A DNA stretch of 51,430 nucleotides, the filler included, from Malassezia furfur (taxonomy: Eukaryota), in NCBI GenBank assembly GCA_052055015.1. It is 2 parts of 2 records of this genome, joined end to end, with 100 filler letters (N's around TTAATTAATTAA, not from the genome) between each part and the next. Parts side by side here need not be neighbours in the genome. Positions count along the whole stretch, not along the records: positions 1 to 25,681 come from JBQJIT010000134.1; 1 more part is not named here. The stretch is one strand, 5' to 3'. A program made the translations under genes and the position numbers. This document shows positions 21,546 through 24,935 of the stretch, piece after piece (the first letter of the stretch is position 1; each line of letters starts with the position of its first letter). The notes beneath the pieces are model-generated. The model saw only the letters and a list, made by a program, of their open reading frames with translations, was not told the DNA's origin and made no database searches.

Positions 21546-22612
21546 TTATAGTGCCTGGTCCCTAGATGCGTGCTTGTTTCCTCGAAAGACGCGAAAGTTT
21601 TCGGTCAGCCGCGCGCCCAGCGCAGCAGGGTCTTCTCCGCGAACCTGCGCAATCAGCGCCACCACGTCGTGCACGCTCCGCGCCAGCTCGGCACAGCAGT
21701 TCTGGTCCGACTCGCTCAGCACACGGTCCAGATCGCACGCAGCGATTTGCGCGTCGAGGTTTTTTTGACGGTGGTTGATGGTTCTGCGTCAGAGTGTACA
21801 CGTACAAAGAGAACGAAATGTACACGTTGGGATGCGCCTGCTGCACACCACGGATGCTTTCGGGACTCAGCGTACAGCTGTGCAACACGAGTCCTGTCGT
21901 CAGGGCATCAACATACGGATATCGGCAAACGACTTCTCCTTGCGCATTTCGTCCAGGAAGGCAGTCGTCTGCCCAGCTGCACGGACGCTATGCATGCTGA
22001 CACTGCGACCCAGCGCACAAGCCATCTGCACCTGGGGACGCAGCACCGCGAGCTGGTGGTCAATCGGAGTCTGGAGCCGCGTGAGTTGGCGTCCACCGAC
22101 ACGCGGGTCCGGGATCCGGAAACTGCGGTCGAGTCCGACTTCACCCACGAGGGCTTGGGGGAAGGATTTGAGGTGCGCAGACAGCTGGTCGAGAGCCTCG
22201 CTGAGCGGCGTCGGCGACGGCAAGGCGTCGTACAATGCAGCCGTCTCGTCGTCCTGGGCCTCGCCGAACAGCCGGGCATAATGGGTGCGGGCATCCGGAG
22301 TCTTCTCGAGCGAGAGGGTATGTGCCGCCCATGGATGGTATCCTACTGGTGAGCACATCACTTACCGAAGCAAGGCACGACCTTGCCGTCGTCCACCGTG
22401 CGCGCCAGGTCCGCGACGCGAGGTTGGTCCACCGTGTCCGTGGACATGACGCAGATCTGGCGCAGGTCGACGCGCTTCACCTCCTCAACCCAGTCCTCCC
22501 ATTTCCTTCCATGCCGCAGTTCCTCGGTGGGATGGCAATGCGCTGCGGTGAGCCAGGCACCGTACCCTGCGTCAGTGCGGCGGCCACCTACATCAACCAA
22601 AGTGGAGGTCAT
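21546..22612 (-). CDS. TatD-family metallohydrolase (Scn1/Cut9-interacting type), 5 introns incl. a 1-nt exon
   Basis: Introns 22567-22591, 22543-22565, 22343-22365, 21894-21916, 21784-21805 give LVDAHCHP, FGYHPW, VGEVGLD, SMHSV, LHSC, LSESD. Confidence 0.85.
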
Positions 22613-22758: not shown

Positions 22759-24935
22759 ATGGACCAGTCATTGATCAGTGCGTAGTGATGGTCGTGTGGA
22801 GAAAGTGTTACTAACACATGGTCCTTGCGGGCCTGAACAGAGCTTGTTAACAAGGTACGTTGCGCGCCGACTCACCGTCCAGCTACAAGATGCGTTCACC
22901 AACGTACGTACTCACCCACCACTCACGCCAGGTCGGCATCCAAAACCCCATTGATCTGCCGCAGATCACGGTGCTTGGCAGCCAGTCGTCGGGTAAGAGC
23001 AGTGTGTTGGAGAACATCGTCGGGCGGGACTTCCTGCCGCGTGGCACAGGCATTGTGACGCGTCGTCCGCTCGTGCTGCAGCTCATCCACCGCGTGCCGG
23101 ACAGTGGTGAGATTGAGCCGCGTGGCGACAACGCGACGAACCCCAACGAATGGGGCGAGTTCCTGCACCTGCCCGGCGAAAAGTTTTACGACTTTGACAA
23201 GATCCGCGAGGAGATTGTGCGCGACACCGAGGCCAAGACGGGCAAGAACGCGGGAATCAGCTCGGCGCCGATCAACCTGCGCATCTACAGCCCCCATGTG
23301 CTCACCCTTACGCTGGTGGATTTGCCTGGTCTGACCAAAAACCCGGTAGGCGACCAGCCGCGCGACATTGAGCGCCAGATTCGGGATATGGTGTACAAGT
23401 TCATTGCCAAGCCCAACGCGGTGATCCTGGCCGTGACGGCGGCCAACACCGACTTGGCCAACTCGGATGGTCTGAAACTCGCCGCCGAGGTCGACCCCGA
23501 TGGCACGCGCACGGTCGGTGTCCTGACGAAGGTGGACCTGATGGATGCGGGCACCGATGTGGTCGACATTCTGGCGGGCCGTGTCATCCCGCTGCGTCTG
23601 GGCTACGTGCCTGTGGTGAACCGTGGTCAGCGCGACATTGACAACAAGAAGCGCGTCGCGGATGCGCTCGAGGCCGAGCGCAACTTCTTCGAGAGCCACC
23701 CCAGCTACCAGAGCAAGGCGGCCTACTGCGGTACGCCCTTCCTGGCGCGGAAACTCAACACGATCCTCATGCACCACATCCGGAGCACGCTGCCGGACAT
23801 TAAGACCAAGATCCAGACGCAGCTCACCAAGTTCCAGATGGAGCTGCAGGCGCTTGGCGGCTCGCACGGCGAGCAGAACAGCGCCGGTGCTGTACTGTCG
23901 ATCATCACCGACTTCTGCAACGAGTTCCGCACGGTGATCGACGGGAACAGCAACGACCTGAGTGTGAATGAACTAGCGGGCGGTGCGCGTATCAGCTTCG
24001 TGTTCCACGAGCTGTTCAGCAACGGTGTCAAGGCGATCGATCCGTTTGACAACGTCAAGGACGCCGACATCCGCACGATTCTCTACAACTCGTCCGGCTC
24101 GTCGCCGGCGCTGTTCGTGGGGACGACCGCGTTCGAGGTGATTGTCAAACAGCAAATCAAGCGTCTCGAGGACCCGAGCATCAAGTGCTGCTCGCTGGTG
24201 TACGACGAGCTGGTGCGCATCCTGTCGCAGCTGCTCTCGAAGAATGCCGCGTTCCGTCGGTTCCCGGCGCTGCGCGAGCGCTTCAATCTGGTGGTGATCC
24301 AGTTCTTCAAGCGGTGCATGGCGCCGACGACCAAGCTGGTGAGCGACATCATCGCGTCGGAGGCATGCTACCTGAACACGGGCCACCCCGACTTCTTGTC
24401 GGGCCACAAAGCCCTAGCGATTGTGAGCGAGCGTCTGAATGCGTCGCAGAACACTGCCGCACCCACGCCCGAGTACCGCAGCGGGCGCCCTATCCCGCCG
24501 GGCCTGGCGAACAACAACAAGGACTTGGACGTGGACATCAAGGAGTCGGGCGGCTTCTTTGGTTCCTTCTTCCCGAACAAGAACCGCTCGGCCGCGAAAA
24601 AGGGCGCGATGGAGGCGCCGCCGCCGAGCCTGAAGGCCTCGGGCACGCTCACCGACCGCGAGGCGATGGAGACGGATGTGATCAAGCTGCTGATTACGTC
24701 CTACTTCAACATTACGAAGCGGACGGTGATCGACATGATCCCCAAGGCGATCATGCTCAACCTCGTGAGTCACGCCAAGGACTCGATGCAGCGCGAGCTG
24801 CTCCAGGAGCTGTACCAGCCCGAGGTGCTCAAGGACCTCATGAAGGAGTCGGACCACGTCATCGCGCGCCGCCGCGAGTGTGTCAAGATGATTGCGGCGC
24901 TCGAGAGCGCCTCGGAAATAGTCGCGACGGTGTAG
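22759..24935 (+). CDS. VPS1: Dynamin-like GTPase Vps1, 3 introns with 14- and 21-nt microexons
   Basis: Splicing 22778-22840, 22855-22882, 22904-22931 gives [49 protein letters not shown] domain. Confidence 0.95.

Follow-up and report, generated by a model that had tools for sequence, protein, structure and literature searches.

The stretch of Malassezia furfur DNA analysed here (assembly GCA_052055015.1; 51,430 nucleotides (nt), filler included), called the window below, carries on its minus strand a gene for a predicted metal-dependent hydrolase. The gene belongs, by its sequence, to the TatD/Scn1 family as found in Malassezia-type yeasts with ultra-short introns. Close to the start codon, a 49-base interval most likely consists of two mini-introns of the U2 type, independent of each other and 25 and 23 nt long, which flank an exon of a single nucleotide, the G at 22566. 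The predicted gene has the following parts.

22592..22612, minus strand: exon 1, the ATG (22612-22610) and six codons, MTSTLVD; the last codon is the Asp of the D-x-H-x-H motif.
22567..22591, minus strand: putative intron 1, 25 nt, phase 0; donor GTAGGT, branch CTGAC, acceptor CAG; letters gtaggtggccgccgcactgacgcag.
22566, minus strand: putative one-nucleotide exon, G, the first base of the Ala codon GCG in D-A-H-C-H.
22543..22565, minus strand: putative intron 2, 23 nt, phase 1; donor GTACGG, branch CTCAC, acceptor CAG; letters gtacggtgcctggctcaccgcag.
22366..22542, minus strand: exon 3, CG CAT TGC CAT CCC..., encoding AHCHPTEE ... VVPCFG.
22343..22365, minus strand: intron 3, 23 nt, GTAAGT ... 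CTCAC ... TAG; the join gives FGYHPW (FG[FIV]HPW in orthologs).
21917..22342, minus strand: exon 4, the TatD_DNase core.
21894..21916, minus strand: intron 4, 23 nt, GTATGT ... CTGAC ... CAG.
21806..21893, minus strand: exon 5.
21784..21805, minus strand: intron 5, 22 nt, GTACGT ... CTGAC ... CAG.
21546..21783, minus strand: exon 6 with the stop codon.

Exon 1 reads ATG ACC TCC ACT TTG GTT GAT on the minus strand, and its seven residues are unchanged in the nine read-through open reading frames (ORFs) of the window's clade. The core of the site is cag-G-gtacgg (22569-22560), with a YAG directly upstream and a GT directly downstream of the single base. Each flanking intron is complete by itself, with its own donor, branch and acceptor, and lies inside the window's own intron size range. 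By hand count, both units have the GT, a G at +5, a CTNAC and a CAG 5-6 nt past the branch A, and the same geometry is found in the three homology-supported introns of the gene.

Removal of introns 3-5 (23, 23 and 22 nt) gives FGYHPW, DIRLVLHSCTLS and SFSLTINHRQ, in agreement with the orthologs. The full five-intron model encodes 316 amino acids without interruption, and its residues 5-304 align with residues 6-319 of the Malassezia ortholog P0005. Because this alignment runs end to end, the gene is intact. The initial annotation had placed the two mini-introns at 22543-22591, and the coordinates and letters proved exact in the minus-strand reading. It had also pointed out that the unspliced reading stays in frame, as it does (MTSTLVD-VGGRRTDAGYGAWLTA-AHCHP, an insert of 16 residues), and that skipping the G shifts the frame, as the removal of 49 nt would. 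Loss of 25 or 23 nt is a frameshift too, and the frame is kept only if 48 nt or none are lost. The window's 84-residue read-through ORF is present on 41 contigs in the protein collection, which argues against an assembly error. An Rfam scan of the window gave no matches.

The two putative introns were compared with a mini-intron grammar consisting of a GT[AG]NG donor, a CTNAY branch and a YAG acceptor, with 18-34 nt in all and 4-12 nt from the base after the branch A to the end of the AG. All intron statistics were drawn from the 51-kb window. On both strands together 54 matches were found, whereas first-order Markov simulations (300 runs) gave 19.1 +/- 4.7 and at most 35. A pair of matches with exactly 1 nt between them is seen a single time in the window, at the TatD site, and in none of the 300 simulations. 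In addition, a census was made of 30 other non-redundant candidates that join ORFs, hand-picked by a heuristic and backed by homology only for the three introns of the TatD gene. Their lengths are 21-33 nt with a mode of 22. The donors include GTACGT (13), GTAGGT (6), GTATGT (4) and GTACGG (2), and the branches CTCAC (9), CTGAC (8), CTAAC (4), CTCAT (3), CTGAT (3) and CTTAC (2). Judged by their signals, intron 1 (GTAGGT, CTGAC, 25 nt) and intron 2 (GTACGG, CTCAC, 23 nt) are typical of the window's predicted mini-introns. The curated annotation of M. sympodialis gives, in its available text, a mean intron of 30 bp and RNA sequencing support for 99% of introns (PMC5389616).

Membership in the TatD family rests on several searches. 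With the largest exon (P0002) as the query, 113 proteins were found, all of which carry Pfam PF01026. The best matches are Malassezia proteins named 'Cut9-interacting protein scn1' or 'similar to YMR262W', with 53-63% identity. Against the TatD_DNase profile, exon 4 alone (P0002) scores 27.2 bits (cut-off 27), the related ORF P0119 scores 55.6 and the ortholog P0011 scores 93.6. In the amidohydrolase superfamily the H-x-H motif binds metal. The AlphaFold model of P0011 has a predicted local distance difference test score (pLDDT) of 93.8 and places strand beta-1 at residues 6-10 (VDAHC). A fold search with this model gave 2gzx, 6l25, human TATDN3 (2y1h) and E. coli YjjV (1zzm) as the best matches, with E from 3e-12 to 3e-9, and a sequence search of the PDB with P0011 gave none. 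Both the triosephosphate isomerase (TIM) barrel fold and the beta-1 placement were thus tested on the ortholog's model and not on the window's own protein. In that model the splice site falls between D7 and A8, inside strand beta-1, and an insert of 16 residues is predicted to split the strand.

The splicing models that could join exon 1 to the rest of the gene were enumerated, allowing one or two GT-AG introns of 15-70 nt and an ATG-started frame held into HCHP. Among the 32 models obtained, D-x-H-x-H results from the 25+23 combination only. The best single-intron alternative removes 45 nt from a GTGGCC donor and leaves D-V-A-H-C-H. Against a profile of 65 homologous N-termini the spliced model scores 50.2 bits, the 45-nt model 44.5, the read-through 43.8 and the sequence without exon 1 43.4, a modest lead of about 6 bits. 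H[CS]HP stands near the N-terminus in 68 of the 113 homologs, and in 65 of these the D-x-H-x-H motif is uninterrupted. By both the enumeration and the homolog comparison, the single G is required for the frame and for the conserved motif.

A different splice pattern at this site we consider improbable. It would consist of either the one 45-nt intron (donor GTGGCC at 22587, acceptor CAG at 22543, product LVD-V-AHCHP) or a non-canonical 48-nt intron (GT..CA or TA..AG). The 45-nt intron would keep the frame and has the 44.5 bits to its credit, but GTGGCC lacks the G at +5 that is present in every census donor, 45 nt lies outside the range of 21-33 nt, and the Gly-to-Arg change of P0117 alters the putative donor further. 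Moreover, D-x-x-H-x-H is found in none of the 68 motif-bearing homologs. The 48-nt intron would yield the same messenger RNA (mRNA) as the one-base exon, and a deletion in cDNA alone would look the same as 25+23 with the G kept; its GT..CA end, however, is lost in P0118 (GCA to GTA). A single intron of either kind would not need the internal signals (branch 1, YAG, G and GTAY), which are nevertheless kept in a clade of 61% identity despite a wholly different intron 2 body.

The three homologs with an interrupted D-x-H-x-H are P0007, P0009 and P0012. The last two are, from their sequences, unspliced ORF calls through the predicted phase-0 intron of the M. nana / M. sympodialis group, since their ...LTQ-AHCHP corresponds to ctgacgcag-GCG. 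The state of the site in orthologous DNA was read in a metagenome scan, which gave 44 loci. Five of these are Malassezia-type and represent three lineages, all more distant from the window than its closest relatives P0117, P0118 and P0119; the site sequence was read in four of the five. Locus L001 reads ...TTG GAT GCC CAC TGC CAC and loci L002 and L044 read ...ATC GAT GCA CAT TGC CAT, in each case with no intron. These intronless relatives indicate that nothing belongs between the D and the A. Locus L003 has GTC GAT, then a 23-nt intron, gtacgtgcgcacggctgacgcag, and then GCG CAT; it is in phase 0 and at the position of intron 1. The exons of L003 read as P0011, the M. sympodialis protein, whose record shows the junction spliced. 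An intron at the same position and in the same phase means that this codon boundary is a genuine intron position in the genus. L001 and L003 have in common a divergent neighbour gene starting MDQSLI, which makes them orthologous loci. The match figures of the fifth locus, L004, whose site sequence was not read, are identical to those of L003.

These loci bear on another explanation, in which the 48 nt stay unspliced and encode a 16-residue insert, VGGRRTDAGYGAWLTA, between the D and AHCH, the intron-like signals being incidental. We give it little chance. The residues before AHCH (WLTA, or WLIV in P0118) are hydrophobic and could mimic a strand, but the insert is absent from 65 of 68 motif-bearing homologs and two of the three exceptions are plainly unspliced ORF calls. 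The insert would also split the predicted strand beta-1, and it would have to be reconciled with the intron that L003 carries at the intron 1 position and with the spliced reading of the junction in P0011.

Relatives that were called as unspliced ORFs speak to the same question. The window's clade includes eight further ORFs with 83-99% identity (P0116-P0118 and P0128-P0132), nine ORFs in all with six distinct inserts. A more distant clade is represented by P0119, which is 61% identical to the window's ORF, and P0127, which read MTARLVD-VRRLTDVGYVRHAYP-AHCHP and ...VRRPTDVGYVGNADA..., respectively. An insert was called compatible if any synonymous codon choice lets it spell an intron, a G and a second intron under the grammar. 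At this protein level all 11 read-through ORFs are compatible, as 25+G+23 or 22+G+23; of 27,922 control peptide windows, for which the 131 long ORFs of the window were used, none is. A Gly-Tyr pair, the read-through equivalent of AG-G-GTAY, is the same in all 11. Constant between the clades are V (the GT donor), T-D (cTGAC), G-Y (AG-G-GTAY) and two Arg in the intron 1 spacer. The intron 2 body is unrelated between the clades (GAWLTA, VRHAYP, VGNADA). If the 48 nt were coding, the conserved residues would be exactly those that spell splice signals, namely V, TD, GY and LT or AY/AD.

The pattern of substitution points in the same direction. In the window's clade 9 of 16 insert positions vary compared to 13 of 67 exon positions (Fisher p=0.005), and when P0119 is compared with P0127, 5 of 15 insert and 10 of 218 exon positions differ (p=0.001); these counts are small and include changes inherited in common. 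As a coding sequence the insert would thus evolve 3-7 times faster than the exons, and by radical changes. The mean BLOSUM62 score is -1.5 for insert changes and +1.2 for the conservative exon changes (Mann-Whitney p=0.0014); the same limits hold for this comparison, in which position 84 was also counted as exon although it lies in intron 3. Nine insert changes were traced by single-base inference. Four fall in the spacer, and the others are GTACGG to GTACGT, CTGAC to CTAAC, CTCAC to CTCAT and, twice, CAG to TAG. All nine keep the splice consensus, and the resulting forms are all used elsewhere in the window.

The change counted at position 84 is a Lys-to-Arg replacement in P0117, P0118 and P0131 that falls in intron 3 (22343-22365, minus strand). 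By single-base inference it converts the donor GTAAGT to GTAGGT and stays within the donor repertoire. The Logan ORFs P0119 and P0127 contain, at residues 8-22 and 82-88, three consecutive mini-introns with inferred lengths of 22, 23 and 21 nt. All three are in frame without a stop, and one ORF caller made of them a 233-residue 'protein' that contains all three. In P0133, a Logan/ENA ORF, residues 1-90 consist of MAGLLVD, about 80 in-frame residues and AHCHP. The ending ...PALTAA-AHCHP fits a phase-1 acceptor, and the intervening sequence at the D/A site is much longer in this lineage.

Several observations weigh against the two-intron reading, in addition to the narrow profile lead, the small substitution counts and the hand-picked census given above. 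First, all 11 ORFs of the two clades can be read through in frame with no stop, and the clades differ by exactly 3 nt in intron 1; both are also expected of a coding insert. Second, the wobble bases that would complete AG-G-GT in the relatives are inferred from proteins only and not seen in DNA. Third, the spliced product of this species was absent from the protein collections searched at 248-2000 residues (best match 63% identical), at 46-147 residues (unspliced 84-residue ORFs only) and at 148-2000 residues (97 candidates with shared words, none of which scored), and from a phmmer search of 1.84 billion representatives (11 matches). The spliced products of the two nearest clades were likewise absent from the same protein collections. 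A degenerate pattern scan of prokaryote genome contigs with AHCHPTE[ED] gave four loci, bacterial by their record titles, which were discarded unexamined.

Fourth, there is P0007, an automated NCBI annotation from Malassezia sp. CBS 17886, with a 14-residue insert, VCGYAACTRALTPA, at residues 15-28, exactly at the LVD/AHCHP site. The initial annotation had named orthologs with a 16-residue insert between the D and AHCH as evidence that would overturn it. This one record formally answers to that description with its shorter insert, beside the 65 uninterrupted homologs, and it counts in favour of a coding insert at this site. The P0007 insert is incompatible with the two-intron grammar, and by test and codon reasoning no canonical solution restores D-A-H-C-H; the attempt to read it as introns with a one-base exon failed for that reason. 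It has G-Y and L-T in common with the window's insert, which suggests that it is a homolog of the proposed intron 2. Only about 7 nt remain where intron 1 would be expected. The P0007 insert may be what is left of intron 1, it may be an artefact of annotation, or the protein may really carry it.

Four other orthologs, P0004, P0010 (M. cuniculi), P0013 and P0015 (M. equina), are annotated or called so that they begin at an internal Met (MSTD or MATD) and lack the H-x-H. From these sequences the tiny first exon or exons of the TatD gene seem to be regularly missed by annotation. The same records could be taken to mean that the 5' end of the gene is decaying, and that an enzyme lacking the HxH motif is made from the internal Met (MSTD...), or none at all; two of them are named annotations, those of M. 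cuniculi and M. equina. Such decay has hardly any probability in our judgement. In the nine window-clade ORFs MTSTLVD and AHCHPTEELRHG never vary, unlike other exon positions, the five-intron model gives the uninterrupted 316 residues with their end-to-end alignment, and missed first exons account for the short annotations more simply.

Taken with the comparative tests that were run, all of which agree with the claim of the initial annotation that removal of both mini-introns gives LVDAHCHP, the two-intron reading leads to a proposed order of events. We infer the splicing itself, and its sequential order, from the anatomy of the site, its conservation and the fit to the protein family. With introns of 22-25 nt recognition must be by intron definition, and each of the two would be recognised in this way. 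Counted upstream from the base at which the intron 2 donor begins, the intron 1 branch A is 7 nt away and the intron 1 AG 1 nt. Since the signals are within 7 nt of each other, simultaneous assembly is implausible; two spliceosomes could not sit there together, and the introns would be removed one after the other. Either order would be possible, as each removal leaves the other intron intact and the structure dictates none. The mature mRNA would read GAT-G-CG-CAT, encoding MTSTLVDAHCHP, with the D-x-H-x-H of beta-1 restored, and the N-terminal peptide of the spliced product would read MTSTLVDAHCHPTEELR (or its des-Met form). Two by-products can be predicted. Removal of all 49 nt in one canonical step, between the donor of intron 1 and the acceptor of intron 2, is a probable event and would cause a frameshift and a stop after about 27 codons, and retention of both introns would likely give an in-frame isoform with 16 additional residues.

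The lineages compared differ at this one codon. There are lineages with no intron, with a phase-0 intron, with both introns, and apparently with a phase-1 acceptor (the P0120 clade and P0007). This variety suggests, as a speculation, a route for a 1-nt intron shift. On a tentative and rather doubtful proposal, the intron-G-intron arrangement is a stable state in at least two Malassezia lineages and may be an intermediate for a one-base shift that needs no stwintron: loss of the intron 2 DNA would leave the phase-0 intron of the M. sympodialis group, and loss of intron 1 a phase-1 acceptor, such as the read-through ORFs of other lineages suggest. As part of the same proposal, the unit may be kept at 3n+1 nt and stop-free (48 or 45 nt of read-through, with a 3-nt indel), so that a failure of splicing would still give an in-frame protein. 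The proposal further makes the unit, with its 49 nt, more compact than any two-intron unit described so far, and it would require two spliceosome cycles on a stretch smaller than a single spliceosome footprint. By sequence, 5 and 9 of 30 unrelated introns score as well against the M. sympodialis intron as introns 1 and 2, respectively. Sequence is therefore uninformative here, and only position and phase link that intron to the window's putative intron 1. A tandem duplication as the source of introns 1 and 2 was considered and is unsupported, their alignment score being equalled by 13.8% of 435 unrelated intron pairs.

The neighbouring gene is divergent and lies on the plus strand. Its ATG is at 22759, 146 bp from the TatD start codon, and we take it to be a dynamin/Vps1-like gene. 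From the ATG onwards, its first apparent exons measure 19, 14 (22841-22854) and 21 nt (22883-22903), and they are followed by introns of 63 (22778-22840), 28 (22855-22882) and 28 nt (22904-22931), respectively. These apparent short exons indicate that very short exons strung between mini-introns may occur elsewhere in the genome too.

If the two-intron reading is correct, the site adds a further fungal one-base exon, the first known to us in Malassezia and the first with spliceosomal introns of near-minimum size on both sides. With its 49 nt it would be a compact natural substrate for studying how two splicing reactions are ordered whose signals are within 7 nt. There are consequences for annotation as well. 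The expectation that gene finders would miss the unit was borne out, as ORF callers read straight through it; being in frame and stop-free, it leads these and at least one eukaryotic annotation to read through or to truncate the N-terminus. The outcome is a mis-annotated enzyme with no intact metal-binding motif, be it by an insert (P0007) or by an internal Met (P0004, P0010, P0013, P0015). Models of intron gain, loss and sliding could also be tried, on a small scale, on the intron states of neighbouring lineages at this one codon.

Sequential excision of the 'stwintron-like' kind had been proposed in the initial annotation. In a stwintron, the internal intron must leave first to complete a signal of the external intron; types [D1,2] and [A2,3] and a model of 1-nt intron shift are described in the available text (Fekete et al. 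2017, PMC5587772). The TatD site resembles this in that two consecutive splicing reactions would act in one short intervening region. The likeness ends with that probably consecutive removal. Neither intron interrupts a donor, branch or acceptor of the other, and neither is created when the other is removed. Unlike in a stwintron, a single base would be retained in the mRNA, and the structure leaves the order of removal free. Both units have intact signals, with no nesting of the form G/GT..AG/T or A/GT..AG/G. The orthologs in the stwintron model, as far as the available text goes, have canonical introns one base apart, comparable to the phase 0 in L003, P0009 and P0012 versus the apparent phase-1 acceptor in the P0120 clade and P0007.

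The statement that one-nucleotide exons are very rarely documented was fair, yet cases are already in print for Arabidopsis, Fusarium and Coprinopsis. A search of the literature gave, among the matches listed, no one-base exon or nuclear microexon from Malassezia. In the long-read annotation of Coprinopsis cinerea 13 exons of 1 nt are counted in 13 genes (PMC12230235). Like the TatD site these are from Basidiomycota, and the omission of exons of 1-3 nt breaks gene models; unlike here, the available text gives a genome-wide count with no case descriptions. To our knowledge, the introns of Coprinopsis are not of the 22-25-nt class.

The APC11 gene of Arabidopsis thaliana has a constitutive internal exon of one base, A333, proven by cDNA sequencing and point mutants (Guo & Liu 2015, PMC4674806). 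As at the TatD site, the exon lies between GT-AG introns, is essential for the frame and was mis-annotated, and its authors likewise argue for intron definition and consecutive removal of both introns. It differs in being an A in a plant gene, located 333 nt into a 422-nt region with flanking introns far longer than 25 and 23 nt, according to the available text, and in being experimentally proven, whereas the TatD case is known from sequence alone.

A parallel in fungi is the one-nucleotide exon of the Fusarium CYP621A P450 genes, supported by 18 SRA reads and described by its authors as the second example and the first in fungi (Nelson & Syed 2026, PMC12940212). It has the identical AG-G-GT core, its G falls in a codon of a motif that is strictly conserved, orthologs keep the arrangement, and intronless relatives provide the reference. 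From what the available text states, the differences are that it belongs to the Ascomycota, that the composite region is about 139 nt (the median intron being 56 nt) and that the G takes the middle position in a Gly codon. One-base exons are thus already known; new at the TatD site are the lineage, the compactness of 49 nt, the conservation in two clades and the in-frame camouflage.

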